This document shows, piece by piece, positions 1 through 37,599 of a stretch of DNA of 40,000 bases (position 1 is the first letter of the stretch; every line of letters starts with the position of its first letter). The translations under genes were made by a program, and so were the position numbers. This DNA is from Pseudanabaena yagii GIHE-NHR1. GTDB taxonomy: Bacteria; Cyanobacteriota; Cyanobacteriia; Pseudanabaenales; Pseudanabaenaceae. The notes under the pieces are model-generated. The model did no database searches. It was not told the DNA's origin and saw nothing but the letters and a program-made list of their open reading frames with translations. The DNA lies in the NCBI RefSeq assembly GCF_012863495.1, contig NZ_JAAVJL010000002.1, forward strand, positions 684,271-724,270, read 5' to 3'.

Positions 1-731
1 AGCTTCTGTAAACCTTGAGGACTAAATCGAGCATCAAGACGACGCGCACCTTGCAAGTTCTTCAAAGTCTCTGGCGTATATTTACCAGTAAGTAAACCTT
101 GAGCAAGAGGACTATAGGCAAGGATCGTTACACCCAATTGTTGTGACTTTGCGAGAACTCCATTTTGTTCGATTTGTTTATTCAAAAGAGAATAGGGAAC
201 TTGATTTACAGCCAGAGAAATTCCCTTTTCAGAAAGATACTGATGGGCAAGAGTCATCTGTTCTGCGGAGTAATTACTTACACCGACCGCCTGAATGCGT
301 CCTTTTTTCACCTCATCAGCTAAGACTTCCATAAAGTCCTTGGTCTTGAGGATAAATTCTAAGGGCCAGTGGATTTGATAAAGACTAATTTGTGAAGTCT
401 GTAAACGCTCCAGACTAGAGGTCAGAGCATCAACTATTGATGCTCGACTCCAGCGCCAAGGCAGTGGGAAATACTTAGTCGCGATCTGGATTGGTTGCGA
501 AGTTTGCTTACTAAACTTACCAATCAAACGTTCCGATTCACCTAAACCATAAACCTCAGCAGTATCAAAAAAGGTGACTCCTGCATCCACCGAAGCTTGA
601 AAAGCTCCTTCTACATCCTTTGCCCCAAAATCCTTGCCATAAGCCCAAAAAAGCGTATCTCCCCATGCCCATGTTCCTACACCTAGCGCTGTTACAGTTA
701 GTCCATTGGAACCTAGTTTAATGGTTTGCAT
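1..731 (-). CDS. Aldo/keto reductase (3' end runs off the left edge of the window)
   Basis: The reverse-strand frame is open from the window edge to the ATG at 731..729. My translation begins MQTIKLGSNGLTVTALGVGTWAWGDTLFWAYGKDFGAKDVEGAFQASVDAGVTFFDTAEVYGLGESERLIG, the typical AKR N-terminal signature. It is absent from the ORF track because the window truncates it. Confidence 0.8.
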   Translation of the reverse strand, partial: MQTIKLGSNGLTVTALGVGTWAWGDTLFWAYGKDFGAKDVEGAFQASVDAGVTFFDTAEVYGLGESERLIGKFSKQTSQPIQIATKYFPLPWRWSRASIVDALTSSLERLQTSQISLYQIHWPLEFILKTKDFMEVLADEVKKGRIQAVGVSNYSAEQMTLAHQYLSEKGISLAVNQVPYSLLNKQIEQNGVLAKSQQLGVTILAYSPLAQGLLTGKYTPETLKNLQGARRLDARFSPQGLQK

Positions 732-776
732 TGTTTTGGCTAAATTTTTCTCGACCATTATATAACAATCCTAAAT

Positions 777-978: not shown

Positions 979-1022
979 GCTTCGACTCCGTTCAGCCAGC
1001 GTTAGCTGAGCGAAGTCGAAGC
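979..1022. repeat. Hairpin copy of the GAGCGAAGTCGAA dispersed repeat
   Basis: GCTTCGACTCCGTTCAGC (979-996) pairs with GCTGAGCGAAGTCGAAGC (1005-1022): an 18-bp stem with 2 mismatches. The same core recurs between nifD and nifK (25744-25862). Confidence 0.6.
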
Positions 1023-1030
1023 TAGATAAC

Positions 1031-1204
1031 TTTGGTGTGACATTTTTTATCCGCGAGAGCCTAAACAAATATACCCATGGATTAATTAGAGAGTTCTATC
1101 CTAAAATCACAAGCTTCAAAATCGTGCAAACAGATAATTTCCAGAAAACGATGAATTCAATAAATCACAGATCGAGAAAATCTCTTAACTATCTTAATCC
1201 CTGA
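1031..1204 (+). pseudogene. IS30-family transposase, C-terminal remnant only (about 57 codons)
   Basis: My translation is FGVTFFIRESLNKYTHGLIREFYPKITSFKIVQTDNFQKTMNSINHRSRKSLNYLNP*. It follows the IS30 transposase tail pattern R-G-x-N-E-N-x-N-G-L-(L/I)-R-(Q/E)-(Y/F)-(F/Y)-P-K ... LN-x-R-P-R-K-x-L-x-(Y/F)-x-x-P. There is no upstream catalytic region and no start codon. Confidence 0.55.
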
Positions 1205-1726
1205 TAAATTATTCTTTGCTTCATTTAGCCACCCTTTGCATTTCATCCTTAAATTGGCAATATATTGAGAAATCCTCAGGTTTGGCGCTAGTGAATAAGT
1301 ATCCTTCTTAGAAAAAACTTGTTGGAAGAAGAGATAATGCTATTAATGCTAAATAAGATAACAATGTCAAAAAATCACAACAATTCCAGTGATTTTTTGA
1401 TTCTCTAAATCAATTTTGAGCAGGCTTAAACATTCTATAAGCAAACTTTTTCAATCCCTGAAAGTATTGTGAGACAAGGATTTATAAAATTTGTTACGTT
1501 CTACATACTAGCTTATATCTTAATATAAGGTTGAAATGTTATGAAAATCTAAAGCCTAACTAGATGCTCAACGTGAACAGAATTACGAACACTTATCTAA
1601 GTATAAAGACTTAATATAAATCCTTTATAGATTAGAGGCTTCTATCTCTGACAAATCGACCTGCAAATTGTTAGGTAGCTGAAAGCTTAGTGTTAAAAAT
1701 TCTCAAAACATATTGGTGTTGTAACT

Positions 1727-3358
1727 ATGGCATATAAGATATCTAGCGATTGCGTTGCCTGTTCTTCTTGCATAGCTATTTGTCCTACAGGTGCAATCTC
1801 AATTCAGCAAGGCAACTATTGGATCGATCCTGCCATATGTAATAACTGTGAAGGCTATGCAAGCGAACCTCTATGCGTTAGTGTCTGTAATATCGGTGCT
1901 TCACTCCCATTACAGCCTAAAAAAGGGAGAGTCAGGACAATCGAAAATCCCCTAACGATCAGTCCGAGCCTATTTGCAAATGGTGGCAGTACTCCATTTG
2001 CCTCAGCGATCGCAATTTGGGAAGCTTGCAATTTACTTGCCCAACGTCGCGCTTTACCTTGGTCTTTAGACGATTCAGGGACTCTTGTTTATGAGAGATC
2101 TGTTAGTCAAGGCAAAGGCAAAATTGCATTGCGCTTGAATAATTTGATCAATTTTAGTTATCCGCGATCGCCCTTAGAAGCACAGACAATTCTTGCTTCT
2201 GACACCCTTGATATCCGTGCTGCCTGTATCCATCTCATCTATGCAGCCTATGCCACCACCCTAGATAAACCTTGGGAACAGGAATTTACAATTAGTGATA
2301 GTCAAATCGAAGAATATTTGGGTTTAGATAAACGCAAAGATCTTACAAAATCAACAAAGCTAAATCTAATTAAAACCATTGCAATGCAACCCTGTTGGAT
2401 TACTGCCGAAATTGATTGGCCTAAGCAAGGAAAAGTTGAAGCTTTCTCTATACCTGAAAGTCCATTATGGAATCTCTTAGAAATTGTGCATCACTTTCAA
2501 GAAGACGAAGAGGGTTGTAAACATCTAATTGGGCTGACTTTTAGAATCCAAGCAGGAATATGGTCACAATATTTTCTCAATAAAAAGGAATGCCACGTAG
2601 GAAAAGCCTTTTATCAATATAGCCACTTACCGAAGTCGCTACTAGGCGCAATCATGAGTGTCTGGCAACAGCATGAAGGTGCATCGCGAATGTTGCTTTG
2701 GTTGCTATTTAAAACTCGTATGGGAGATCAACAAAGAATTATGGTGATCACTTTAATGCGTGTTGCCTATGGCGAAGATCGCGTTAAGCTAGCGCTCTCC
2801 CAAAGAGATGAACGTAAGCGTTTATTGAGAATGTTTGAGAGTGACTTGGAGGTCGTAAATCGTTATGGACTCAAACCGATCTTCGATCCCGTCACCTATC
2901 CTGTGGAGATTCAGCCGCTATGGTCAAAACTAGAGGATATTCCTGATGATGCTGAAGCTGCCCTAGATTTCTGGATTAATGATGGTAGCTGCAATCTGCG
3001 ACTAACAGACATTGGTCCCCGTGGAAAATGGCAGATGTTAGTTAATGCTCGCATTCTATCCTTTGAGTTACTTGCTGATTGGGAACAGCCTACGGAATTG
3101 ACTCGCAAAAAGCGTAAATATGAGCGATCGCAAAGTCAGTCGAATAAACCCCAAAGATCCAGTAAAAAATCTCCACATACTCAATCTGAATTATCAGGCG
3201 AGCAAATTGCAACCCTCCGCAAAAATCTCCAAATTAGTCAGCGCACTTTAGCCGAGAAAATCGGGAAGAGTCAGAGTTGGATTCGCGATGTGGAAAATGG
3301 ACGTTTTCAAGCTAAGCAAAATGAACAACAGTTAATTCGGCAAGCTCTAGGACTATAA
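1727..3358 (+). CDS. cnfR: CnfR/PatB-type nif transcriptional activator (N-terminal ferredoxin-like Fe-S domain, C-terminal HTH)
   Basis: 543 aa. The N-terminus SSDCVACSSCIAICPTGAI...CNNCEGYASEPLCVSVCN carries CxxCxxCxxxCP plus a second Cys cluster. The C-terminus LSGEQIATLRKNLQISQRTLAEKIGKSQSWIRDVENGR is an XRE-type helix-turn-helix. This architecture, the size and the nif-linked position match PatB/CnfR. Confidence 0.8.
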   Translation: MAYKISSDCVACSSCIAICPTGAISIQQGNYWIDPAICNNCEGYASEPLCVSVCNIGASLPLQPKKGRVRTIENPLTISPSLFANGGSTPFASAIAIWEACNLLAQRRALPWSLDDSGTLVYERSVSQGKGKIALRLNNLINFSYPRSPLEAQTILASDTLDIRAACIHLIYAAYATTLDKPWEQEFTISDSQIEEYLGLDKRKDLTKSTKLNLIKTIAMQPCWITAEIDWPKQGKVEAFSIPESPLWNLLEIVHHFQEDEEGCKHLIGLTFRIQAGIWSQYFLNKKECHVGKAFYQYSHLPKSLLGAIMSVWQQHEGASRMLLWLLFKTRMGDQQRIMVITLMRVAYGEDRVKLALSQRDERKRLLRMFESDLEVVNRYGLKPIFDPVTYPVEIQPLWSKLEDIPDDAEAALDFWINDGSCNLRLTDIGPRGKWQMLVNARILSFELLADWEQPTELTRKKRKYERSQSQSNKPQRSSKKSPHTQSELSGEQIATLRKNLQISQRTLAEKIGKSQSWIRDVENGRFQAKQNEQQLIRQALGL

Positions 3359-13763: not shown

Positions 13764-13802
13764 TTTTTTACTTTTGCCTTTTTACTTTTTACTTTTTACT
13801 TC
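13764..13802. repeat. Heptamer tandem array (sense GTAAAAA x3, GGCAAAA, GTAAAAA) at the nifEN stop
   Basis: The + strand reads TTTTTTACTTTTGCCTTTTTACTTTTTACTTTTTACTTC. The array overlaps the nifEN stop codon. Confidence 0.8.
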
Positions 13803-16513
13803 TCTTCAGCTTCTAGCCAAATATTGCCAAGCTCAAAAAGTAGTTCCATCGTGCCGCGATAACCGACGATGCTGCGATGTCCATTACCCAGACGGTCTAG
13901 AATGGGGAAGCCTAAACGATAGAGCGGAATTCCTAACTTTTTAGCAACTCTCTTCCCGTTGGAGTTAGTTGCCATGAGATCGGAACCTGCGGCAAGGTGC
14001 TCAAAATCTTCAAGATCGCCAATCGTCACTTCCGCTATCGGTAACTTTTCTAATAAAGGTGATCGCGTGGTGGTGACGGCAGCTTGCAGTTCTACGCCCA
14101 TTTCTGTCAGCCACCAAGCGACGCTGTACAGCAGATCGGGTTCTAGGGCTAGAGAAACGCGCTTGCGACCGAAATAGAAGTGTGTATCTAAAATCGCATC
14201 TTGGAGTTGCTGTCTTTGATAGCGGTACTTCTCAGGTACGGCAACTCCACTCAATTGATAGAGTTGTTGCAATAGCAAGTCCGTTGCACCTAGCCCCGTG
14301 AGGCGATCGAATACTTGATAATCAGTACCAAAGCGCTCTTGCAGAATTGTCGCCGCAGTTCGCATACTTTCACCCAAGGCAAGGGTAAACACAGAACTAC
14401 CGACACTTTGAATTTGCTCTAGGGTAGTTCCGCCTGTAGTGACGGGACTATAACTCTCGCTCAAATGTCCATCCATCGAACTCGAAAGATCGGGAATGAA
14501 AATTGGCGATAGTCCAAAGGAATTGATAATCTCCTTAATCTCTTGGATATCCCCAGGGGCGAGAGCCGAACTTGCTAAGACCGTTAACTGTTGGGAATTT
14601 TTGATGCCTTCTTGGGGTAGCGATCGCACAATGCTTTCAATTACTGCTGCATAGCCATCCTGTAACGCGCCTCGAAAATCGGGAGTTGACGCAAATGGGA
14701 TTGCCAGTTTGTCAAGTTCAGGATGTTTTTGACGGAAGGTGCGGAGAATGCCTTCCATATCATCACCGCGAGTTTCCGTTAATCCTGTGGTGCAGAGTCC
14801 GATAATTTCGGGCTGAGCCTTTTCCACTAGAGTTAAAATCGCCTGTGCAATATTGTCTTCACCACCGAGAATCGTGGTAACTTCCGTCATCGCTGTGGTA
14901 GCTAGAGGAATTGCTTCGCGGAAATGGCGGACGAGTTGCACCTTGGCAAAAGCGGTACAGCCTTGGGAGCCGTGCATTAATGGCATCGCACCCTTTAGCC
15001 CCAGAAAAGCAAGGGATGCACCGAGAGGCTGACTCTGCTTGAGGGCATTGACAGCGACTGCTTTTTTCGGTGTGATGATATCGGTTTTAACTTGCTCAGC
15101 GTGACTTTCAATTAATAGAGACTTGTTAAACGCAAGGGGATCTTCCCAAGGTGCGGGTTGGCGAACCTGCTCCCAAATTGGACTATAGAGAGCTTCTTCT
15201 AATTCTCTAGCAATCTCAATCATGCCTACATAGCCAGCATAGGGATGATGACGCTCTTGGTTAATGTCGAGAAAGGGAATACGTGCTTTGAGGGCAGTGT
15301 ATTGGTTGCGCCCACCTGCGATTAACATATCGGCTTGGGTTTTGGCAATGGTTTTGAGTAATTCTTGGGCGTTCCCTTTCTCCATCATGATTCCATCTTT
15401 GCTCAGCAAGGCGCGAATCTTTGCCTTGTCTTCTTCAGTACTCTTCTTGGTGCTAGTAGCAACCACTTCCATACCCAAATCTTTCGCGGCGGAAATGATT
15501 GACCAGCTTTTGACACCACCTGTGTAGAGAACGACTTTTTTACCCTTAAGGCGATCGCGGTATGGCGCAAGTTCGCGATCGAGGTTTGCTGATTCCTCTG
15601 CGATCAGCTTTTCGACTCGATCCTGTAAGTCGCGATCGCCTAATTTTGCGGCAATATTGCGTAGACATTGATTCATGTCGGCAATCCCATAAAAAGATTC
15701 TTCGGTGTAGGGAATGCCATAGCGCTCTTCCATCTTGCGAGCGACATTGATTAATGCTTTGGAACAGATGAGAACATTCAGTTTTGCTCGGTGAGCATAA
15801 CAAACTTCTTTATAGGTGGCATCGCCTGTAATTTTCGACAATACGCGAATGCCCAATTTCTCAAATAAGGGCAGCACACTCCATAACTCACCTGCGATAT
15901 TGTATTCACCAATCAGATTGATATCGTAGGGAGTGGTATATTCGGGTTCCGTCGTGCCAATCACATATTCCAATAAAGCTTCGCCGCCCATGCGATTTCC
16001 TAAATTCTTGGTTCCAGCGAACCCGGGAGAATTAATCGGAACGATGGGAATACCTGTTCGTTCGGCGGCTTTTTGACAAACTGCTTCGAGATCGTCACCA
16101 ATCAGGGCAGTCACACAGGTGTTATACACAAACACCGCCGCAGGTTGATAACGTTGTTGAACTTCTAAAATTGCCTTGTAGAGCTTTTTCTCACCACCGA
16201 AGATAATATCGTTTTCGCTGAGGTCGGTGGTAAAGCCCATTTTATACATGGTCGAACCTGACGACAGGCTACCTCTTGCACCCCAAGAATTGCCACCACA
16301 GGCGATCGGGGCATGGACAAGATGGGCGACATCGGTAATAGGGACGAGAGCGATCGATGCACCATCAAAGGCACAGCCACCTTGCGCGGCTCCTGGTTGG
16401 GCTTGTTGTGAGCAAGCTTTATTCTTTTTCTGCCCATCTTTGTGATGATGATGATTATGCTCACAGGCAGTCTCGGACAGGAGTTCGTTGATTTTTCCTT
16501 GTGTGAGTTTCAT
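13796..16513 (-). CDS. nifEN: Fused NifE-NifN FeMo-cofactor biosynthesis scaffold (single 905-aa polypeptide)
   Basis: Residues 1-456 are NifE-like ([34 protein letters not shown]...[16 protein letters not shown]). Residues ~484-905 are NifN-like ([42 protein letters not shown]...). The two are joined by [25 protein letters not shown] (nt ~15065-15145) with no stop codon. Confidence 0.85.
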
Positions 16514-17932: not shown

Positions 17933-18016
17933 TGCAGTCTCTGACAGTTAGGAGTTTGGAGTTCTGTCTTCCTGCTTATATCAGGTGCGATTAACCCAAC
18001 GGAAATAATTGTTGCG

Positions 18017-18158
18017 GATAAGATTTATTAAATTAATTAAGAAAGTACTCAGAAGCCTAAAGTCAGACTTCTAGGGAGTTTGACTTTTCTTTTGGGATAG
18101 GGGTACTAGTATTTTTGAGAGGAGGTACTAGTATTTAAGGGAATAGGGATAAGTATTT
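18017..18158 (-). promoter_or_regulatory. nifP upstream module: conserved core block plus three 22-bp-phased repeats
   Basis: In nifP sense, the core block at 18051..18017 reads TGAGTACTTTCTTAATTAATTTAATAAATCTTATC. Three AAATAC-containing units have their + strand GTATTT at 18109, 18131 and 18153. The module is a mirror copy of the nifB module. Confidence 0.55.
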
Positions 18159-18692
18159 TTATAGCCATTTCTGCCAAGTCTGTGCTTAAAGATAAAATGC
18201 TACGCGCAAGCATGGATAAGGGTTTAAGCAAAAAATATAACCAAACACAAATTGTACTCATAGGTACTCAGAAATGAGCCAATTCCTATTGAGCAAATAA
18301 GGTTTTGTATTAATAGCTACGGTTCATAACTGTACTGCACTAGCCATAAAAAATCAAGGAATAAATTTTAAATTTTTGTATTTATATCTGTATATATAGA
18401 TACGTTTAAAATCGGTTTTTACCGAAAGAAAGCAACTCCTGACAATTGTTAAAAAATTTTGATCCTTTTGCTACAGATTATCGAAGGAATGATAATTTAG
18501 ATACAAAATTAATTGCCTTAATTAAAGCTAGTAAAAACACCTAAAAGTAAGTCTATACACGACTCCTAGCCACTAATCTTATGTTTTTTGTAAGAATTGG
18601 TATCTTTTTTGAGTACATAAAAAAGTGCTTATAGTTAGCACTCAATTTTTGCTTGTATAGGTTGCTATAACTGGATTTATAGTGAGTACATG

Positions 18693-18844
18693 CAAAACTG
18701 TACCCCTTCCCTATAAATACCTAACCCCCATCATCTAAATACTCGTACCCCTACCCCAAAAGATTTTTTAAAACTGCTTAAATGTAGGCGCAGTTAGGGA
18801 TATGAATTTTGAGTACAAGCTTAATGTATTTAATAAATCTTATC
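18693..18844 (+). promoter_or_regulatory. nifB upstream module: three 22-bp-phased repeats plus conserved core block
   Basis: The three units are CAAAACTGTACCCCTTCCCTAT, AAATACCTAACCCCCATCATCT and AAATACTCGTACCCCTACCCCA (18693-18758). The core block TGAGTACAAGCTTAATGTATTTAATAAATCTTATC lies at 18810-18844, 82 nt before the nifB ATG. Confidence 0.55.
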
Positions 18845-18925
18845 GCGATCGCTTTCCTGCCGCCTTCCATAGTGACTGCTATAAATTTTGCATATTGACC
18901 GCAGTCCACTTATCAGGAAGCCTCA

Positions 18926-20419
18926 ATGACACCCCCGACACAAGCTCTCATTGCCTCCCCCGTTGAGAATAAGATTGCAACAACTCCAGCAAAATCCCAA
19001 AAATCAGGAAACTGTGGTTGTAGTAGCTCAAAAGGTTCCCAAACTTCTAACAAAAGTACTCTTAGTGAAAGTATGCAGGAGCGGATTGCGAAGCATCCCT
19101 GCTATAGCGAAGAAGCTCACCATCACTATGCTCGGATGCACGTTGCCGTAGCGCCCGCTTGTAACATTCAGTGTAACTACTGCAATCGTAAATATGACTG
19201 TGCCAACGAAAGTCGCCCTGGGGTAGTTAGTGAATTACTAACTCCCGAAGAAGCAGCTCACAAAGTAATGGTAATTGGCGGCAAAATCCCCCAAATGACC
19301 GTATTGGGAATTGCGGGGCCTGGTGACCCTTTAGCCAATCCTGAAAAGACTTTCCGAACTTTTGAGTTGATTGCAGCAGAGGCTCCCGATATTAAGCTCT
19401 GTCTTTCAACGAATGGATTGATGCTTCCCGAATATGTCGATCGCATCAAGAAGTTGAACATCGATCATGTGACGATCACGATTAATATGGTCGATCCTGA
19501 AATCGGTACTAAGATTTATCCTTGGATTCGTTATAACCGTAAGCGCTACACTGGTCTAGAAGCGTCACAGATTCTGCACCAACGCCAAATGTTGAGCTTA
19601 GATATGCTCAGAGAAGCAGACATTCTTTGCAAAGTTAATTCGGTGATGATTCCCGGAATTAACGATGAGCATCTCGTAGAAGTGGATCGAGTGATTCGTG
19701 AAAAAGGGGCTTTTCTCCACAACATTATGCCTCTAATCTCTGCTCCTGAACATGGCACACATTTCGGTTTAACTGGACAACGCGGTCCTACTCCCAAGGA
19801 GTTGAAAAAACTTCAGGATAGCTGCGCTGACAGCAACATGAAGATGATGCGCCACTGCCGTCAATGCCGTGCTGATGCCGTCGGTTTACTCGGTGAAGAT
19901 CGTTCCCAAGAATTTACCAAAGAAAAATTCATGGAAATGGCTCCCACCTATGATTTGGAAACCCGTCAAGTGGTTCACGCTGGCATCGATCTCTTACAAG
20001 CAGAATTGAAAGAGAAGAAAGCCAAAGTAACCAACATTCAAAAGACAGTGGCAACTCCCAAAATCCTTGTAGCTGTGACTACCAAAGGCAGTGGGATTGT
20101 CAATCAACACTTTGGTCATGCCAAAGAGTTCCAAATTTATGAAGTTGATGCCACAGAAGTCAAATTTGTCGGACATCGCAAGATCGATCAGTACTGTCAA
20201 AGCGGTTATGGCGAAGAAGCAACTCTCGAAGAAATTATCTCTTCCATTGCTGATTGTAAAGCCGTACTGACCGCTAAAGTTGGTAACTGTCCTCAAGAAA
20301 GCCTTTGCAAAGCAGGTATCGAGCCAGTCGAAGCCTACGATGCGATCGATACCGTAGCGAAAGAATTCTACGCTAAGTTTCTCCAAAAAGAAGCTCTTCT
20401 AGAACAAGCTCCCTATTAA
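18926..20419 (+). CDS. nifB: Radical-SAM FeMo-cofactor biosynthesis protein NifB (with C-terminal NifX-like domain)
   Basis: 497 aa: [44 protein letters not shown]. The C-terminal part [29 protein letters not shown] is NifX/NafY-like. Confidence 0.9.
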
Positions 20420-29279: not shown

Positions 29280-29284
29280 TGATT

Positions 29285-29315
29285 ATGATGGACAGTGCTT
29301 AGTTCTGTCCATCAT
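29285..29315 (+). terminator. 11-bp hairpin at the end of the nifB...nifT operon
   Basis: ATGATGGACAG, 9-nt loop, CTGTCCATCAT. It starts 6 nt after the nifT stop, and no clear T-run follows. Confidence 0.4.
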
Positions 29316-29382
29316 TGCAATATAGAGAGTACGGTGATACTATTACTGGTCTCTACATTGCTAACGATCGCTGGTTTATACG

Positions 29383-29529
29383 ATGTTGACGAATGGTGAT
29401 GATATTGTGTTTGTGAAGCTAGAGGGTAAGCAATATGCAATGTCTCAGGTTTTGGCTCCTTTGGTTAATCGGGGTGAGTTAGAGGTTGCATGGCAAGTTT
29501 TACGCAAGATTGCAGAAATAGATGTTTGA
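29383..29529 (+). pseudogene. Probable 3' fragment of a PD-(D/E)xK / HsdR-N-like cyanobacterial gene
   Basis: My translation is (VYT)MLTNGDDIVFVKLEGKQYAMSQVLAPLVNRGELEVAWQVLRKIAEIDV*. It resembles the YG-x-x-TNG-x-x-W/I-x-F-x-KL tail of that family (from memory). A stop codon lies 6 codons upstream, so no full-length frame exists. Confidence 0.3.
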
Positions 29530-29636
29530 TGTATAGATTAAGGATTTCTACTATTTCTCTTTTTTTCTTTATCTATTTGCCGCTCTATCGAATTAATCAT
29601 GTCTTTTACCCAATGAGACATTTTAGGGTGTTTGCG

Positions 29637-32600
29637 CTATGATTTGAATAGTGTTAAGTATGTTTCAAGCTTAGCAGTTTCAGCTCTATATAATTGTAGA
29701 CGGGATTCTAGAGCATCGCAAAACTCTTCAATTTCACCAAATTCATTGGTCAGTTTTACTAAAGCTGGATGCCATTGACTCTCACCTGAATCTTTTTTCT
29801 CAAGTACAGGATAAAAGTTACATAAGAAACGCAATCGGTTTTTTGGGTCTTTCTTAGCCCAATTGATATACTCGGTTTCAGGGACTCCAAATATTATACC
29901 TGCATTGTTTTGGGATTCTCCATCGAATGTATGTCGGAGGTATCCAACAAGTTCTTCCAAATAAAAAGTTTCAGATGGAGTTGCGATTTCAAAGAAATTA
30001 GATAAAGCATTCCATAGCAAAATTGGCTTGTCTTTAACTAATTCTTGAATTACACTCTGAAAATCATTATCTAACATTTGAAAAATTTTTATATCTTTAA
30101 CTTTACATAACCGTATAACTTGATTAATTAATCCAATTGCAAATTTATCATCAATTCCGTAAAACTTATGAACCAAAAGAGTTAGTTGTTTGAATGCATA
30201 CGCATGATTTATTGCTATTCTTTCTATTTTAAGAAGTTTTGGCGCAGTAACTAGTTGTTTAATTCGTTTAGCTAATTGTTTGTCAAGATTTGAGCGGTTA
30301 AGTTGGTACATAGAAATGATTTCTAGCGCCGTCCATATACCGACAGATTCTTGATTTAGATATAACTCATCAATTAAAGGCAAGATTTCTTTGACTTCAA
30401 GATTATCCAATCCCCTTCCATAGGAGAAATATACACACTCAGGTGCGTTAATACTTCCGTCTTTTAATTTCTGTACAATTTCATTTAGCCTTTCCGCAGA
30501 AATATCTATAGCATTGTATATATGCACCATTTGATTTTTCAAACGATTAGATTGCTGAGCAATTTGGATGCATTTAGTCACAATATCACTTCCTCTTTTG
30601 TCAATACCAGAAATTAATCCACTGAGAAATTGAATACCTTTATCTTCTGTAGATTTTTCAAACTCTTTGACTGCAATTTGAAATATTTTTAATGGATCTT
30701 CCACTTTTATTGCCAATTCATAGGCAAATGGATATACATTATGCAACTGTTCTTGTACCATTATTTGGATGACTTGGTTCGTAAGATCTAGATTTATAGC
30801 GATTTCAGCCGCTACTTCTTTCGCTTTTTTGGAAGAGTATTCAAAATCATCATTAGATCTATTGTTCGTATCGTAAGTTGAGTCTGGATCGTGAATATCC
30901 ATCTGCCAAAATTTTGTATATAGTAATGCTAGTTGTATTAAATCGGTTGGTAGGAGCGTATCATAAAGTTTTCTTACTCTTATCGATAAAGTTTCTGATC
31001 CCTTTTTTCTGTCGTAATATAACCAATCACCAATTCCTTTAATTGCCTCAAGCCAGATTCCTTTATCCTTGGTATTATCTTGTAAAATATTTTCAACATC
31101 TCCAATAAGGTTTTCGTAGGAGATTAAATCTCGAATATTAAAAGCAATAATTTCTTCGCATTTACAAGCAAAAACTTTATTGCTAACACGAATTTTATTT
31201 AGTCTTTGAAGACCTTCTCTAATAAAATCGAATAATTCATTCCCTGTCTCTGGTCTCCAATGTTTTAGCGGAGGTTGAGTTCCTATTTTATTAAAGTCTC
31301 TAGTCCAGCCTCGATAACTTCTTTGTATAGTATTTTGTAATGCTTCAATACAGATCTTAATGACCCTTTCATCATTAGAATTAAGCCCATCATCTAAGAT
31401 GCGGAAACGTTCTGATGGTTCGACTTCAGTTCCGCTTGAATATATTTGAAAAAGTTGTGTAAAGATGATAGTTGAGCTATTTCCCACAGGTTGCTTTTCA
31501 ACAGCAGCTAATTTTAATAGTATTCTTGCTGCAATATGAAAAGTTTTTTGGCTAAAAACAAGTTTCGCTAAAACATTTATTAGATGATCTTTTCCTGATT
31601 GTACTTGCTGAAGTTCATCTATTGATAGTTTTCCGAATATTCGCTCAATAGTATAAGCAACACTAATTGGATCAATGTGTACTAAAGCATCAAGGCATTG
31701 TAAACCAATATTTGTATTTAAACTTTCTAGCGATCTGCACAAGCCATCTCTTGCTAACAAGATCTCGGTAACTTTAGCTAATGTTTTTGAAGTGTCAAAA
31801 TACTCCCATCGCTTTAAAAAGGATGACTGTAATCTTGGTGGTGCATTCTCAATAAAATTAAGAATATTTTTTACACGCAATAGATCTAGCCTTCTTAATC
31901 CAAGAAAATTAGCTATAGGCAAAGGTTTTGCGATAAAAAAGTAGCCGTTATAGTCTACAAGAAAAGACTTTGCGGCTTGAGCTAGATATTCATACATTTC
32001 ATCCCCAGTTTGACGAGCTAAATTTTGAGCAACAAAGTCAAGTTCTTCACTTAGGGTTTCATCTGCTCCTAATTCAGTAAATAAAGCAAGACACTCAATA
32101 GCTCGAACTTGTTCTATACAAGTTATGCCGCAGCCTTTAAGGATACGTTCTTCGACATCTTCTATAGATTTTAGAATCGGTAATCCTTCTGAGTAGTTAT
32201 CAGTAGCTAGTACAGCAATACGTGGATATCCATCGCTTAGATTTTTGACAAATTCAATATCTGAGTTATCAGCTTTGGGATAGCGTTGTCGAATGATCCC
32301 TTCAATTAGAGTTTCATTGGCAGGAGTAACTGAAATATTCAAACAATCATCTTTGTCTATAGGTTGATTGTCATTGCCAATCGTTATGATTTTGAGATTG
32401 CTACTTTCTTTCTTCACTATTTCATTAAGCTTAATAGCAGTCTCACGAGGACAGTTATCTACAATGATGAGCGCTAACTTACTTGATGCTGAGAAACTTT
32501 CAACATCTGCCAAAATTTTATGACCTATTTTTTCTAAGTCGCAGTAAACTGTAGACACTGATAACGAAAGCTTTATTGTGGTTGTCTCATCCTTAAAGAC

Positions 32601-33398
32601 TTCGTATACAAATCGCGTTTTACCAAGCCCCGAAGCCCCATAAACCCTTATCGTTCTTCTAGGATCTGCTAGGTAATCCATAATTCTTTCCTTTGTTTTA
32701 TGGAAAGAAAGTGAGTCTCTTTCTTTGTTCTCTACTATTTGAAATCGATCAGCTTTGTCTTCAACTAGTGGCACTTTAGAAATATCTAATATTTCCCCCA
32801 AGCTTTCAATTGTTTCATAGCTTTTTAGCTTAAGTCCTGATTCTTGTTCATTAAGCCAAACTGCGATCGCAGGATATTGCGATACCCAAGTCGCAATTTT
32901 ATTAGCATCATAAATATCAATCCCTATTTCATCGGGATTCCCCCCAGCTTCTCGAATACCTTGGTTGATAGCCTCAATTAGTTTGGTTTTTTCTTGATCT
33001 ACAATTGGGGCAGAAGTAAAGCCGATATAAAAGCCTTTTTTAGCAATAACCGTTGTCACTGCCTCATTTAGTTCTCTTTGAGATCCTTTCTTTTGACTTT
33101 TCTTTGTCCAAACTTCTTTTTTCCATCCTGCTCTTCCTAAATTTGTAGCTTTTGACTGAAATATACAGAATCTAGAGGGTAAATAATTTGTTTCTTCGAG
33201 ATACTCTGTCCATTTAATCTCAAGTGAAAATCTGGCATCCTCACCACCATCGGGGGTAGTAATTTGAAGAGGAACTGAAACTCCTCGTAGTGGTATTCCA
33301 ATATACTGAGCCTCAGCGTGAAGTAATTTCTTGAGTAATATGACAAGGCTATTGCTATCTAACTTTTCAATTTTAGAGGGATGAACATCAAAAATCAT
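29637..33398 (-). CDS. 1253-aa Mrr-like nuclease-motif / P-loop (STAND-like) NTPase / alpha-helical repeat protein; candidate NLR/Avs-type defence sensor
   Basis: Residues 1-185: LLKKLLHAEA...ITTPDGGEDARF...CIFQSKA...GFYIGFTSAPI...IDIYDANKIATWV reads as an Mrr/PD-(D/E)xK layout (D50, E53, Q81-x-K83). Walker A is VYGASGLGKTR (aa 252-262, nt ~32616-32639) and Walker B is LALIIVDNC (aa 308-316). About 830 further residues are Leu/Ile/Glu/Lys-rich and I recognise no catalytic motif in them. The DNA is visibly more A+T-rich than the nif genes, and I find only one HIP1 site. Confidence 0.55.
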   Translation of the reverse strand: MIFDVHPSKIEKLDSNSLVILLKKLLHAEAQYIGIPLRGVSVPLQITTPDGGEDARFSLEIKWTEYLEETNYLPSRFCIFQSKATNLGRAGWKKEVWTKKSQKKGSQRELNEAVTTVIAKKGFYIGFTSAPIVDQEKTKLIEAINQGIREAGGNPDEIGIDIYDANKIATWVSQYPAIAVWLNEQESGLKLKSYETIESLGEILDISKVPLVEDKADRFQIVENKERDSLSFHKTKERIMDYLADPRRTIRVYGASGLGKTRFVYEVFKDETTTIKLSLSVSTVYCDLEKIGHKILADVESFSASSKLALIIVDNCPRETAIKLNEIVKKESSNLKIITIGNDNQPIDKDDCLNISVTPANETLIEGIIRQRYPKADNSDIEFVKNLSDGYPRIAVLATDNYSEGLPILKSIEDVEERILKGCGITCIEQVRAIECLALFTELGADETLSEELDFVAQNLARQTGDEMYEYLAQAAKSFLVDYNGYFFIAKPLPIANFLGLRRLDLLRVKNILNFIENAPPRLQSSFLKRWEYFDTSKTLAKVTEILLARDGLCRSLESLNTNIGLQCLDALVHIDPISVAYTIERIFGKLSIDELQQVQSGKDHLINVLAKLVFSQKTFHIAARILLKLAAVEKQPVGNSSTIIFTQLFQIYSSGTEVEPSERFRILDDGLNSNDERVIKICIEALQNTIQRSYRGWTRDFNKIGTQPPLKHWRPETGNELFDFIREGLQRLNKIRVSNKVFACKCEEIIAFNIRDLISYENLIGDVENILQDNTKDKGIWLEAIKGIGDWLYYDRKKGSETLSIRVRKLYDTLLPTDLIQLALLYTKFWQMDIHDPDSTYDTNNRSNDDFEYSSKKAKEVAAEIAINLDLTNQVIQIMVQEQLHNVYPFAYELAIKVEDPLKIFQIAVKEFEKSTEDKGIQFLSGLISGIDKRGSDIVTKCIQIAQQSNRLKNQMVHIYNAIDISAERLNEIVQKLKDGSINAPECVYFSYGRGLDNLEVKEILPLIDELYLNQESVGIWTALEIISMYQLNRSNLDKQLAKRIKQLVTAPKLLKIERIAINHAYAFKQLTLLVHKFYGIDDKFAIGLINQVIRLCKVKDIKIFQMLDNDFQSVIQELVKDKPILLWNALSNFFEIATPSETFYLEELVGYLRHTFDGESQNNAGIIFGVPETEYINWAKKDPKNRLRFLCNFYPVLEKKDSGESQWHPALVKLTNEFGEIEEFCDALESRLQLYRAETAKLETYLTLFKS

Positions 33399-33440
33399 GA
33401 CAGACAGAAAATATACACGTTGGTTTTATTAATGTACTCT

Positions 33441-34578
33441 CTAAGTACAGGGCAAAAAGTTGCAAAAGTAGGCAGGGAGGGGTTTTATAAAAGATAACCA
33501 CATCGTAAATAAAACCCCTATGAAAGAGATTAACCTATTCCGAGAAAAGTTGCAGCAACATCTGCAATGGAATAGAGCAAGACTAGCCTTTGTGTCCATG
33601 TTCTTGATCGCGCTAATGCGAGTAAAGACAGTAAACCTAGCTGAAATTGCCACAGGATTTAGTGGTTATGCCAAAGTCGAATCACACTATAAGAGGTTAC
33701 AGAGATTTTTTCGAGACTTTGAAGTGGACTATGAAAAGATCGCACTCATGGTCGTCAAAGTCATGCAAATCCCCGAACCTTGGGTAATTTCTATCGACCG
33801 CACCGATTGGGAATTCGGTAAAACCGTGTTTAATGTGCTGACATTGGGAATAGTGCATTACGGTATTGCATTCCCGTTGGTATGGATGATGCTGGACAAA
33901 AAAGGTAACTCAAACACCCGTGAGCGCTGTGAATTGTGTAATCGATTTCTGGAAATATTTGGAGACCGCAAAATCGACTTTTTGAGTGCAGACCGAGAGT
34001 TTGTCGGTGAGGATTGGTTAGATTACTTGTTGTGTGAACCATGTAACCGTTTTCGTATCCGCCGTAAAAATACTTTGCTCAATGACGGGCAGAAAAAACT
34101 GCGTGCCGACATTTGTTTTCAAGACCTCCAAGTTGGTCAGTCCAAAGTATTGTCCAAGCCCAGAAAGGTTTGGAACCATTGGCTTCGTATAGCCGCTATG
34201 CGTCTTGATGATGGCGATTTATTAATTGTCGCGACGACTCATGACCCTGATACGGCTATTGCTGACTATGCTAAGCGTTGGGCTATTGAGACTTTATTCG
34301 GGTGCTTTAAAACCCGTGGCTTTTGTTTGGAGTCCACTCATCTTCAAGATCCTGAACGTCTTTCCAAACTAATTGCTTTGCTTACTCTGGCTTTATGTTG
34401 GGCTTTTTCTTCTGGGCTTTGGTTGGCTCAACTAAATCCCCTCAAGCCTAAAAAACACGGTCGTCTTCCTAAAAGCATTTTTCGCCTTGGTTTTGATTTC
34501 CTTCGTCACATCATCTTTGACTTACATCTCAATTCTCAAGCCTTCTTTAACTCCATTAAATTTTTGTCCTGTACTTAG
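33441..34578 (+). mobile_element. IS4-family insertion sequence (1138 bp) with 21-bp imperfect terminal inverted repeats
   Basis: IRL is CTAAGTACAGGGCAAAAAGTT (33441-33461). The reverse complement of IRR (34558-34578) is CTAAGTACAGGACAAAAATTT, a 19/21 match. There is a single transposase ORF. The flanks AATGTACTCT and CGAAACCCGT show no direct repeat. Confidence 0.8.
33520..34578 (+). CDS. IS4-family DDE transposase
   Basis: 352 aa. The DDE candidates are VISIDRTDWEF, DFLSADREFVG and YAKRWAIETLFGCFK (the Y-x2-R-x3-E-x6-K signature). The stop codon is the last 3 nt of IRR. Confidence 0.8.
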   Translation: MKEINLFREKLQQHLQWNRARLAFVSMFLIALMRVKTVNLAEIATGFSGYAKVESHYKRLQRFFRDFEVDYEKIALMVVKVMQIPEPWVISIDRTDWEFGKTVFNVLTLGIVHYGIAFPLVWMMLDKKGNSNTRERCELCNRFLEIFGDRKIDFLSADREFVGEDWLDYLLCEPCNRFRIRRKNTLLNDGQKKLRADICFQDLQVGQSKVLSKPRKVWNHWLRIAAMRLDDGDLLIVATTHDPDTAIADYAKRWAIETLFGCFKTRGFCLESTHLQDPERLSKLIALLTLALCWAFSSGLWLAQLNPLKPKKHGRLPKSIFRLGFDFLRHIIFDLHLNSQAFFNSIKFLSCT

Positions 34579-35278
34579 CGAAACCCGTCATCTTGCCCTT
34601 CAGCGTATTAAATCAGAAGCAAGGGAAGTAGGAGCCAATGCAGTTGTTGGCATTAAGACATCGATTTTGCCATTAGGAGCAATGCAAGAAATGGTGATGA
34701 TTGGCACTGCTTCCCATCATCCATATCTGCCAGAGGTTTATCATCAAAATCCGATCGCTAGCGATCTCACCAATGAAGAAATGTGGAACCTGATTAATCA
34801 AGGATATATGCCTGTGCAGCTAGTCTTAGGGGTTTCCGTTTACTCTTTGGGATTGCTCGGCGGCATAAGCTCGTTTTTCAAATCTTTTGTGCGCGGTGAA
34901 ATTAGAGAGTTGACAACGCTGATTTATGAAGCCAGAGAAGAAGCTTTAAAGCATATCGCCGAAGATGCCCGCCGCTGTGGTGCGGATCAAGTGGTGGGCA
35001 TCAAAACCTATGTTTATAATTTAGGTGGTGGCATTATTGAGTTTTTAGCTATTGGCACAGCCGTGAAAAAAATGCCAGATGTCAGGACTGAATCAGAAAA
35101 CCTCATACCACAGGCGATTATTCGTGACCAAGAGACTTTTATTAATACTGCGGAAACCACTTCGGCTCTCTCGTTAAATCAGCCCACAAACTCATCGAGC
35201 ATTCTTGCCGTAGTTGCGGGCTTAGTCATATTTGCATTTTGGATGATCTTTTTCCTACTTCGATTTGTTCATCGTTAA
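34579..35278 (+). pseudogene. 5'-truncated tandem YbjQ/DUF74 (UPF0145) protein with a C-terminal TM helix
   Basis: Native sequence starts mid-domain at ...ETRHLALQRIKSEAREVGANAVVGIKTSILPLGAMQEMVMIGTA. A second complete domain reads EAREEALKHIAEDARRCGADQVVGIKTYVYNLGGGIIEFLAIGTAVK. The ORF-track start (34487) and the first 30 codons are IS-derived. Confidence 0.65.
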
Positions 35279-35373
35279 AAATATTTATCATGGTGCATAG
35301 TAGCTCGCGTTGATACTGGTCTGCTTATGCTTACCTTGTACTGCCTCAAGTCCTTACGAATATTGGTTTTGTT

Positions 35374-35832
35374 ATGTCAAAAGAGATCTCGTTTAGATGG
35401 TTTAGTGTATTTGTATGTTTTTATGAGATCGCTAGCTTGATTGTCTACCTGACAACATCTTTTTCCTCTTTGGCTTGGATCATTGCATTTTTTTCACTCT
35501 TACCATTTTATGGAGTTTGTGTAATTAGCATGATTGTAGCAACCATCAAAAAACGCAATGCTAGAGTCAGGTATTACAGGGCTTTTATTCCATTAATATT
35601 CGTACTTCAAGCAGCCAAGCTTTTATCTAGCCCCGCAAGCTGCTATGGATGGAGTCAGGGTAATAGTTGCTACTCATTATTACAATTATTACTAGATCCT
35701 GCAAATCTCAAAACGCTTTCAAATCCGCCTCCCCATTGGCTAACAATCGAATCCATATTTCCAATTGCATTAATCCTTTATATGATTTCTGTTGGAGCTT
35801 TTTTGCTGACGATTCGCGTTCAAGAAGTTTAA
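35374..35832 (+). CDS. Hypothetical multi-pass membrane protein
   Basis: 152 aa with about four hydrophobic helices. I recognise no family. Confidence 0.4.
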   Translation: MSKEISFRWFSVFVCFYEIASLIVYLTTSFSSLAWIIAFFSLLPFYGVCVISMIVATIKKRNARVRYYRAFIPLIFVLQAAKLLSSPASCYGWSQGNSCYSLLQLLLDPANLKTLSNPPPHWLTIESIFPIALILYMISVGAFLLTIRVQEV

Positions 35833-36000
35833 AAGGATAACCCTATGAAGTCTCAGGGTGATAATAATTTGGTGTAGTATCAGCCATCAGGGCAATTGTA
35901 ATTCAGTATAACGTCCCAATCTTGACTCTTTTGATTACCTCTTAATCTCAAAAAGTCACTTTTATCCGAACTTCCAACCTATAAGAAGTCTAATACTAGT

Positions 36001-37599
36001 ATGCTCGAAAATGCTCGTGAATTTCTTTCCCAGATTAATAATTACCCAATCTCATCAAGACTAGAGGAAGAGATAACAAATAGCGATCGCGCTTTATTTA
36101 TTCTCCATGACCAATTGAATCTTGCTGTTTTTCCTAGAGATTTACTTGATCGTAAGCCAATTTTAATCTTTGTCGAATCTCTAGCCTATGCCACCTCTAT
36201 TCCGCATCACAAACAGAAATTAGTTTATATATTGAGCACTCAGAGGCACTTTGCAATTAGCTGCTATCAGAAGGGTTTTCTCATTGTTAATCTATTTGCC
36301 GAAGGGGCTTATGCTGATGCTTTAGAGGAATTCCTCATACGTTATCCAAATATAGAGTTAACCTATATGCAGCCTTCTGAATGGGATACGCGATCGCAGA
36401 TGGCAAGATTAGCAAATATATTTGGTAAGCGTATTAAGGCTTTACCCAATCAATTTTTCATTGCTGATGTTGAGAAGTTTAAACCTAAAATCAAAAAAGG
36501 TTATCGCCTAGAAACTTTTTATCGAGAATTACGAAAACAGACAGGCTATCTGATGCAAGACGGTAAACCGATTGGCGGTAATTGGAACTACGATAAAGAG
36601 AACCGCAAGGCATTACCGAAACAGATAGTAATTCCAGAAATCCCAGAAATTAAACCTGATCCCATTACTCAGGAAGTAATTGAGCTAGTCCAGAAATACC
36701 TTCCCAATACATTTGGGAAGGTAGATAAATTTATTTATGCTGTAACCCGCGATCGCGTCCTTGAGCTAGCTCAATTATTTGTCGAAACCCGCTTATCCAG
36801 ATTTGGAGCTTACGAAGACGCAATCAAAGTAGGAGAACCATTTCTATTTCATTCAGTATTATCAATATATCTAAATAATGGCTTGCTCTTACCAAGGGAG
36901 ATCTGTGAAATGGCGATCGCAGCCTATGAAAAAGAATTAGCTCCTCTGAACTCCGTTGAAGGATTTGTACGCCAGATCCTCGGATGGAGGGAGTATATTC
37001 GCATTTATTATGAAGCAAAGATGCCAGATGTCCGCGAGAGTAACTATTTTGGATTTGATAACCATCTACCGCAGTTCTATTGGGATGCAAATACAGATTT
37101 ACTATGTCTCAAAGATGCGATTACCCAAGTTTTAAATTACGGCTATTCACATCACATTCAACGCTTGATGATCTTAAGCAATTTCAGCAATCTCATCAAC
37201 ACTGATCCCCGCCACCTAAATCGCTGGTTTTGGCTTGCCTATGTGGATGCCTATGAATGGGTTGAACTACCTAATGTCCTAGGAATGTCTACCTTTGCGG
37301 ATGGAGGCATATTAGCATCTAAGCCCTATGTCTCGGGAGGTAACTATATCAATAAAATGAGCAATAGTTGCTCGCAGTGCAAATACAATGTGAAGGAAAA
37401 AACGGGCGAAACTGCTTGTCCATTTAACTATTTATATTGGAATTTTGTCGATAAACATCGCGAAAGCTTTACTGAAAATGGAAGAGTCTCACTTATGGTA
37501 AATGCTTATGACAAAAAGACAGAAGATGAGAAACAGGAAATTCATCTATCAGCAAGCAAATTTATAAATGGTATAAAGTATGCTCCTTTAATTAGCTAG
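36001..37599 (+). CDS. Cryptochrome/photolyase-family protein of the FeS-BCP (PhrB/CryB-like, COG3046) type
   Basis: 532 aa: HKQKLVYILSTQRHF...ETFYRELRKQTGYLM...GGNWNYDKENR...GWREYIR...SHHIQRLMILSNF...WFWLAYVDAYEWVELPNVLGM...GGNYINKMS. Four Cys lie at the expected Fe-S positions (LLCL, CSQC, ACP). Confidence 0.75.
   Translation: MLENAREFLSQINNYPISSRLEEEITNSDRALFILHDQLNLAVFPRDLLDRKPILIFVESLAYATSIPHHKQKLVYILSTQRHFAISCYQKGFLIVNLFAEGAYADALEEFLIRYPNIELTYMQPSEWDTRSQMARLANIFGKRIKALPNQFFIADVEKFKPKIKKGYRLETFYRELRKQTGYLMQDGKPIGGNWNYDKENRKALPKQIVIPEIPEIKPDPITQEVIELVQKYLPNTFGKVDKFIYAVTRDRVLELAQLFVETRLSRFGAYEDAIKVGEPFLFHSVLSIYLNNGLLLPREICEMAIAAYEKELAPLNSVEGFVRQILGWREYIRIYYEAKMPDVRESNYFGFDNHLPQFYWDANTDLLCLKDAITQVLNYGYSHHIQRLMILSNFSNLINTDPRHLNRWFWLAYVDAYEWVELPNVLGMSTFADGGILASKPYVSGGNYINKMSNSCSQCKYNVKEKTGETACPFNYLYWNFVDKHRESFTENGRVSLMVNAYDKKTEDEKQEIHLSASKFINGIKYAPLIS

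Follow-up and report, generated by a model that had tools for sequence, protein, structure and literature searches.

The defence system PD-lambda-4 was recovered by selection from the Escherichia coli pangenome (Vassallo et al. 2022, PMC9519451) and has since been renamed Avs8. Avs8A combines an Mrr-family nuclease, a P-loop STAND nucleoside triphosphatase (NTPase) and a repeat sensor; it binds the HK97-fold major capsid protein (MCP) with a dissociation constant (Kd) of 14-127 nM and degrades double-stranded DNA in an ATP/Mg-dependent manner, and defence is lost in nuclease active-site mutants (10.1101/2025.07.02.662641). MCP sensing by Avs8 was also found independently, with the sensor modelled as wrapping the capsid A-domain (10.64898/2026.01.04.697583). 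Here we describe an Avs8-like gene of Pseudanabaena yagii GIHE-NHR1, found in a stretch of 40,000 nt that we call the window (NZ_JAAVJL010000002.1, positions 684,271-724,270, forward strand; assembly GCF_012863495.1). With a probability of about 0.75 for the reading as a whole, the gene is a horizontally acquired, divergent member of the Avs8 family in a mobile context, which was recently truncated and is probably impaired. Its family membership, its architecture, the truncation, the adjacent insertion sequence (IS) and the mobile context are established here.

The product of the gene (WP_211167856.1) carries the database label 'hypothetical protein', because Pfam and NCBIfam searches give nothing useful: Pfam returned only a sub-threshold match to AAA_16. 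A PADLOC scan, the check proposed in a preliminary description of this DNA, gave one strong match, to PD-Lambda-4_A (E=1.2e-69, 233 bits; residues 2-1044 on positions 3-1040 of 1283), and no match of the protein to any other PADLOC model. The NTPase of E. coli Avs8A (residues 217-398, taken from the supplement of the paper) aligned with residues 248-405 of the window protein at 25% identity (E=4e-14). A full-length Avs8A encoded on an Enterobacter plasmid (1283 aa, 75% identical to the E. coli protein in the NTPase, 1777 bits to the PADLOC model) was collinear with the window protein over residues 2-978 in BLASTP (22% identity, E=2e-32). The motifs PDGGxD, FQxK, GxSGxGKTR and (I/L)(I/V)DNCP were in register between the two, the first two reading PDGGVD and FQAK in Enterobacter.

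The nearest relatives of the window protein also matched the PD-Lambda-4_A model. The last ~240 residues of the cyanobacterial proteins gave no direct alignment to the PADLOC profile; this region could be bridged to Avs8A because homologues from Burkholderia and Rhizobium, which share 47% and 37% identity with the window protein, matched profile positions 3-1271, that is, end to end. Searches with the E. coli NTPase and with the window protein retrieved the same plasmid loci (Phaeobacter, Burkholderia, Sphingobium and Xanthomonas), which fall within a continuum of 59%-20% identity.

The preliminary description, made from the nucleotide sequence, had proposed a single-gene, mobile immune sensor of the Avs-type STAND class, and the PADLOC, BLASTP, Foldseek and effector-profile matches all support it. 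The description erred in proposing that the clade might be undescribed and that the C-terminal region could not be placed: the gene belongs, as a divergent member, to the characterised Avs8/PD-lambda-4 family. The sensor aligns directly to about residue 1044, and the C-terminus is reached through the Burkholderia and Rhizobium intermediates. The NACHT type, which had been named as well, was supported by none of the tests made here. Pfam gave no NACHT match and PADLOC no bNACHT match, and NOD2 is only one of many STAND proteins among the structural matches.

The protein has the three-part organisation of Avs8A (Table 1). The N-terminal effector carries the motifs E29, P49-D50-G-G-E53-D54 and Q81-S-K83, of which D50, G51, G52, D54, Q81 and K83 do not vary among the 24-45 homologues compared. 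Analysed alone (residues 2-185), it matched positions 3-174 of PD-Lambda-4_A (E=1.1e-15), as did the effectors of all 24 homologues tested. Within the NTPase, Walker A (GASGLGKT) occupies residues 254-261 (32616-32639) and Walker B (LIIVDN) residues 310-315 (32454-32471). An AlphaFold2 (AF2) model of the NTPase and sensor had a pLDDT of 87.8 and was almost wholly helical. The best Foldseek match of this model was the Avs3-terminase structure (8dgc), followed by a STAND-TPR protein (6mfv), the NB-ARC NLRs NRC2/3, NOD2 and HEAT/ARM solenoids. A phmmer search of the protein against the PDB found no significant similarity, Avs3 included. The P-loop NTPase with both Walker motifs, which had been recognised from the sequence beforehand, and the helical-repeat C-terminal sensor, with which the sequence had been judged compatible, are thereby supported.

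A variation was observed at codon 315 (32454-32456), immediately after the Walker B aspartate. This residue is Asn in the window protein and its nearest relatives (IVDNCP), as it is in E. coli and Enterobacter Avs8A (ILDNCP); 42 of 44 other homologues have Glu (IVDECP). This difference may bear on the debated requirement for ATP hydrolysis in Avs8A.

Compared with Avs8A of E. coli ECOR07 (WP_000963924.1), the P. yagii protein belongs to the same length class (~1285 aa) and shares the three-part architecture, with sequence homology in all three parts, as well as the four motifs named above; both are encoded by a single effective gene on mobile DNA. The P. yagii copy differs in its low identity, in belonging to a cyanobacterial branch of low G+C content and in being truncated by a nonsense codon. 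The original PD-lambda-4 is a two-gene operon, whereas the P. yagii locus has no Avs8B-like neighbour: none of the neighbouring ORFs (open reading frames) in the window matched a PADLOC model, neither as Avs8B nor as another defence partner. This is no argument against function, because Avs8B was shown by experiment to be dispensable for defence (10.1101/2025.07.02.662641).

Other described systems were compared as well. Avs1-4 (AVAST; 8dgc) also have an N-terminal nuclease, a STAND NTPase and a TPR-like sensor by which a conserved phage protein is wrapped, and the P. yagii model finds its best structural match in Avs3; their sensors, however, recognise terminase or portal and not capsid, and the Avs3 nuclease is of the Cap4 type. 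Avs7 and Avs10 are reported to recognise the same face of the HK97 capsid A-domain, with sensor architectures reported to be different (10.64898/2026.01.04.697583); in PADLOC the P. yagii protein matched PD-Lambda-4_A and no other model. The catalytic domain of the type IV restriction enzyme Mrr (E. coli b4351) shows a collinear order of helix, DGGxD, QxK, a hydrophobic strand with G(V/F)(F/Y)I..TS and a strand/helix, a similarity that is statistically marginal (P=0.03). In Mrr itself this domain is C-terminal, behind a winged-helix DNA reader, whereas in P. yagii it forms the N-terminal effector, joined to an NTPase.

From the homology with Avs8A, on which we infer trigger, DNase activity and oligomeric state, the C-terminal alpha-solenoid of the intact protein would wrap monomeric HK97-fold MCP made during infection by a tailed cyanophage. 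MCP binding would free the STAND NTPase, which could then bind or hydrolyse ATP and oligomerise, probably to a tetramer. Oligomerisation would cluster the N-terminal Mrr-like PD-(D/E)xK domains, and the clustered nucleases would cut double-stranded DNA indiscriminately, so that phage replication would stop and the infected cell would be sacrificed (abortive defence). No partner gene would be needed. In the P. yagii allele, an apparently recent TGG-to-TAG change at codon 1254 removes a conserved C-terminal helix of 33 residues from this machinery, and an IS4 element lies 42 bp upstream.

The ORF at 29637..33398 on the minus strand encodes 1253 aa and, with its motifs, lies where the preliminary description had placed it. 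It had been taken as intact, which it is not: the TAG at codon 1254 cuts off 33 residues. The nearest relatives (88-92% identity, 1277-1287 aa) all extend beyond Ser1253 with W-RKH-PKMSHWVKDMINSIERQIDKEKKRN, and the 32 open codons that follow the TAG encode the tail of these relatives exactly; the intact product would be 1286 aa long. Apart from codon 1254 the frame contains no stop and no frameshift. The ratio of nonsynonymous to synonymous substitution rates (dN/dS) against the nearest intact relative is 0.30, and 0.18-0.33 for individual domains. This ratio, together with the presence of only one internal stop, indicates a gene that evolved under purifying selection until a recent inactivation.

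The other end of the gene is also altered. The edge of an IS lies exactly 42 bp upstream of the ATG. The element has a DDE_Tnp_1 transposase, terminal inverted repeats of 24 nt (33438-33461 / 34558-34581) and multiple genomic copies, with at least four identical copies of the transposase in the genome, features that define it as a member of the IS4 family. No target-site duplication was found around it (flanks GTACTCT / CGAAACC; window 33441-34585). Its flanks are not contiguous: the left one is the upstream region of the Avs8-like gene at -42 and the right one is the interior of a YbjQ-domain gene that has lost its first ~60 codons. The junction therefore looks like the result of an IS-mediated rearrangement (deletion or recombination) and not of a simple insertion. 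Similarity to all relatives ends precisely at the IS edge, and upstream of -42 the IS has taken the place of the native DNA.

On the 3' side lies the remnant of a small convergent HSDR_N-like gene, of which the first ~15 aa and the last 48 aa survive and ~236 bp have been lost internally. The corresponding gene beside one close relative (our locus L001, 4201-4632) encodes 143 aa and matches Pfam HSDR_N (E=7e-5); it is whole beside the 92%-identical relatives and absent beside more distant homologues. Gene debris on one side and an IS 42 bp from the start codon on the other had both been reported previously, and the debris is this remnant. Several genes of this small A+T-rich islet, at the margin of a strain-specific nif segment, are decaying, and the Avs8-like gene is most likely among them.

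Table 1. Features of the Avs8-like gene and its immediate neighbours, in window positions.
Feature	Position	Strand	Description or evidence
Ancestral frame of the Avs8A-like gene	29538..33398	-	1286 codons plus natural stop (29538-29540); one nonsense codon inside
N-terminal effector, residues 1-185	32844..33398	-	Avs8A type, Mrr-like PD-(D/E)xK signature
STAND P-loop NTPase, ~residues 230-415	32154..32711	-	E=4e-14 to E. coli Avs8A NTPase; Foldseek
Winged-helix/arm region and all-alpha solenoid sensor, residues 416-1253	29640..32153	-	AF2, Foldseek, Avs8A sensor alignment
Premature amber TAG, codon 1254	29637..29639	-	Trp (TGG) in 43/44 homologues; single G-to-A change
Orphaned 3' tail	29541..29636	-	32 in-frame codons (RKHPKMSHWVKDMINSIERQIDKEKKRNSRNP), now untranslated; aligns with the C-terminal helix of relatives
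Remnant of small convergent HSDR_N-like (PD-(D/E)xK-type) gene	29295..29529	+	blastn and translation against L001/L002
IS4-family element, 1138 bp	33441..34578	+	Transposase ORF 33520-34578, DDE_Tnp_1 match; divergent from the Avs8-like gene
5'-truncated YbjQ-domain gene at right IS end	34579..35278	+	Pfam YbjQ match from profile position ~62 of first domain

The composition of the gene sets it apart from its surroundings, as had been noticed in the preliminary description. Its G+C content is 34.3%, against 43.5% for the rest of the window; values of 0.32-0.37 extend over 29-33 kb, with ~0.45 on both sides. The HIP1 octamer (GCGATCGC) occurs 43 times in the window, against 0.44 sites expected by chance, and only one of these sites, at 32863, lies in the gene. 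The gene alone thus has one site where 4.4 would be expected (Poisson P=0.07), and the whole islet (29280-35996) has one where 8.5 would be expected (P=0.002). At every cyanobacterial locus examined the gene has 34-37% G+C and is nearly HIP1-free, with flanks of 39-45% G+C. Since the composition is foreign in every cyanobacterial host, it is a property of the gene lineage and not of the P. yagii locus.

An exhaustive HMMER search found 2981 cluster representatives (50% identity) at E<=1e-3 and 917 at E<=1e-30, mostly proteins of 1250-1300 aa that aligned end to end. Homologues of Nostocales lie beside DUF433/DUF5615 toxin-antitoxin genes and transposase fragments, a Gloeothece homologue beside a large helicase and IS fragments, a Burkholderia homologue in a prophage-like region, the homologue on a Pseudanabaena metagenome contig beside ParB and HipAB, and a further one next to gas-vesicle genes. 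Homologues were also located on 44 plasmids, half of them conjugative. No neighbouring gene was conserved among the loci examined, and no relatives were found in sequenced phages. A distant full-length paralogue (24% identity) is encoded on the Pseudanabaena galeata CCNP1313 plasmid NZ_CP112879.1 (54733-58326), which shows that several diverged lineages of the Avs8 family circulate in Pseudanabaena.

The window contains a complete nif cluster (modA/modBC, a hesA-type ThiF gene, fused nifEN, cysE and nifB, S, U, H, D, K, V, Z and T), which is mentioned in the genome announcement for P. yagii GIHE-NHR1. The Avs8-like gene lies 360 bp from nifT and is convergent with the nif operon. At the left end, window positions 1-762 match an aldo-keto reductase gene whose direct neighbour in other Pseudanabaena genomes is a DPRP gene. 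Here the DPRP gene lies at 36001, and synteny with other Pseudanabaena is resumed at 35997 (window 35997-37565). Because the two genes adjoin in related genomes, the ~35 kb that hold nif and the islet are strain-specific at this site, with the Avs8-like gene at the right-hand edge. This arrangement suggests that the P. yagii nif cluster was acquired or rearranged as a block. The aldo-keto reductase gene itself is inverted with respect to the relatives (comparison with our loci L024-L026).

The condition of the allele depends on the stop codon and on the upstream junction. A single-base change in a PacBio-based GenBank assembly might be an error of sequencing or assembly, the real gene being intact, but this is very improbable. 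Substitution errors are uncommon in polished assemblies, and this one was Illumina-polished at 59x. Run SRR11458705, assembled independently in Logan, agrees with it at 100% identity over 5944 bp that span the TAG and reach across the IS junction into the first 42 nt of the element. The TAG is therefore genuine and not an assembly artefact. That the 1253-aa product is nevertheless a fully functional Avs8-type defence protein, with its C-terminal 33 residues dispensable and its transcription driven or spared by the IS, deserves more weight, while still being doubtful. In its favour, the catalytic and nucleotide-binding motifs are all intact, the frame has no further lesion, and the protein keeps the consensus at the 242 evaluable positions conserved to at least 90%, minus 10 conservative deviations. 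In the close relative P0001 (1277 aa) the tail naturally ends ~9 residues earlier. Conversely, seven of the 33 lost positions (W1254, H1257, W1263, A1264, L1271, I1275 and E1278) are conserved to at least 90%, each in at least 40 of 44 homologues; the lost segment can be aligned even with the enterobacterial Avs8A; and the neighbours in the islet are degraded too. Because the conserved terminal helix has been lost and the native upstream DNA displaced, the allele is more likely impaired or inactive than not affected, at about 60-70% judging from these sequence features. Three points weigh against impairment: the effect of removing 33 residues is deduced from conservation alone, the P0001 tail is naturally short, and the IS may or may not disturb the promoter, promoter-like matches in this region being no more frequent than expected by chance.

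The trigger and the role of the protein have to be weighed as well. Because identity to the experimentally studied Avs8A is just 22%, trigger specificity may differ from that of Avs8A, and this divergent cyanobacterial/proteobacterial branch might sense a phage component other than the HK97 MCP. The last ~240 residues, which escape direct alignment to the PADLOC profile, would fit this possibility, as would the published finding that related Avs sensors can differ in target (10.64898/2026.01.04.697583). We nevertheless consider it unlikely, since the sensor is collinear with Avs8A over ~600 residues (BLASTP against Enterobacter Avs8A), the 47%-identical intermediates match the Avs8A profile end to end, and Avs8A recognises, by fold, capsid proteins that are less than 15% mutually identical (10.1101/2025.07.02.662641). 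More speculative still is that the ~1290-aa branch of cyanobacteria and alpha-/beta-proteobacteria represents a functionally distinct Avs8 subfamily, in which the diverged C-terminal ~240 residues, the lost helix among them, would tune recognition to cyanophage capsids or to another phage protein, the gene having perhaps been carried along with the nif segment of ~35 kb as cargo in a single transfer event. That the protein is a STAND ATPase with a housekeeping or regulatory role tied to the adjacent nif genes, and not to defence, is scarcely credible. The gene does lie close to nifT and within the strain-specific nif segment, but its homologues occur elsewhere in unrelated contexts (gas-vesicle genes, plasmids, a prophage-like region, toxin-antitoxin modules), it is compositionally foreign in every cyanobacterial host and convergent with the nif operon, and its homology to a validated defence protein is specific.

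The assignment to Avs8 with a nuclease effector has its own weak points. Membership was established here by sequence (profile and BLASTP), whereas the published criterion for Avs8 places the sensor in the EcAvs8A structural cluster (Foldseek, 80% coverage, TM>=0.40). An hhalign comparison of the effector with the Mrr profile was collinear over 122 columns and marginal (P=0.03, a score reached by 2 of 60 shuffles), and the nuclease fold was not recovered by Foldseek, by a profile search of the PDB or by Pfam (no Mrr_cat). Of the Mrr/PD-(D/E)xK N-terminus put forward in the preliminary description, the motifs and the match to the Avs8A effector stand; the fold was not confirmed by structure search, and the Mrr similarity is marginal.

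Several further features were observed. The Pseudanabaena biceps PCC 7429 copy of the Avs8-like gene (our locus L012, 10001-13448; 91-93% identical) appears to be broken too: from that genome the database has only fragments of 690 aa and 376 aa, and DNA similarity to the window stops ~300 bp short of the end of the contig. Decay of the gene may be proceeding independently in this second Pseudanabaena. Between the truncated YbjQ gene and the resumption of synteny, an ORF of 152 aa with predicted membrane character (window 35374-35832, plus strand) had no Pfam or PADLOC match. Within the nif cluster, the two nitrogenase component-1 domains of a single 905-aa ORF (window 13796-16513, minus strand) point to a fused nifE-nifN gene. 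Two more patches of low G+C content were found, at window positions 1001-2000 (0.35), overlapping an ORF of 543 aa without a Pfam match (1727-3358), and 18001-19000 (0.34), upstream of nifB.

The P. yagii gene is an ordinary member of a known family and is probably in decay. Family, trigger and mechanism have been published, and a standard PADLOC scan recognises the gene, which leaves little discovery value in the locus itself. WP_211167856.1 and hundreds of relatives now labelled 'hypothetical protein' can nonetheless receive the annotation of Avs8-family STAND nucleases. The case also shows how widely Avs8 is distributed among cyanobacteria, with a composition that stays foreign (34-37% G+C, HIP1-poor) in each host. 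As a natural C-terminal truncation, the P. yagii allele offers a means of asking whether activity requires the conserved terminal helix. For the bloom-forming, odour-producing Pseudanabaena, it adds one more, probably defunct, entry to the record of anti-cyanophage defence.

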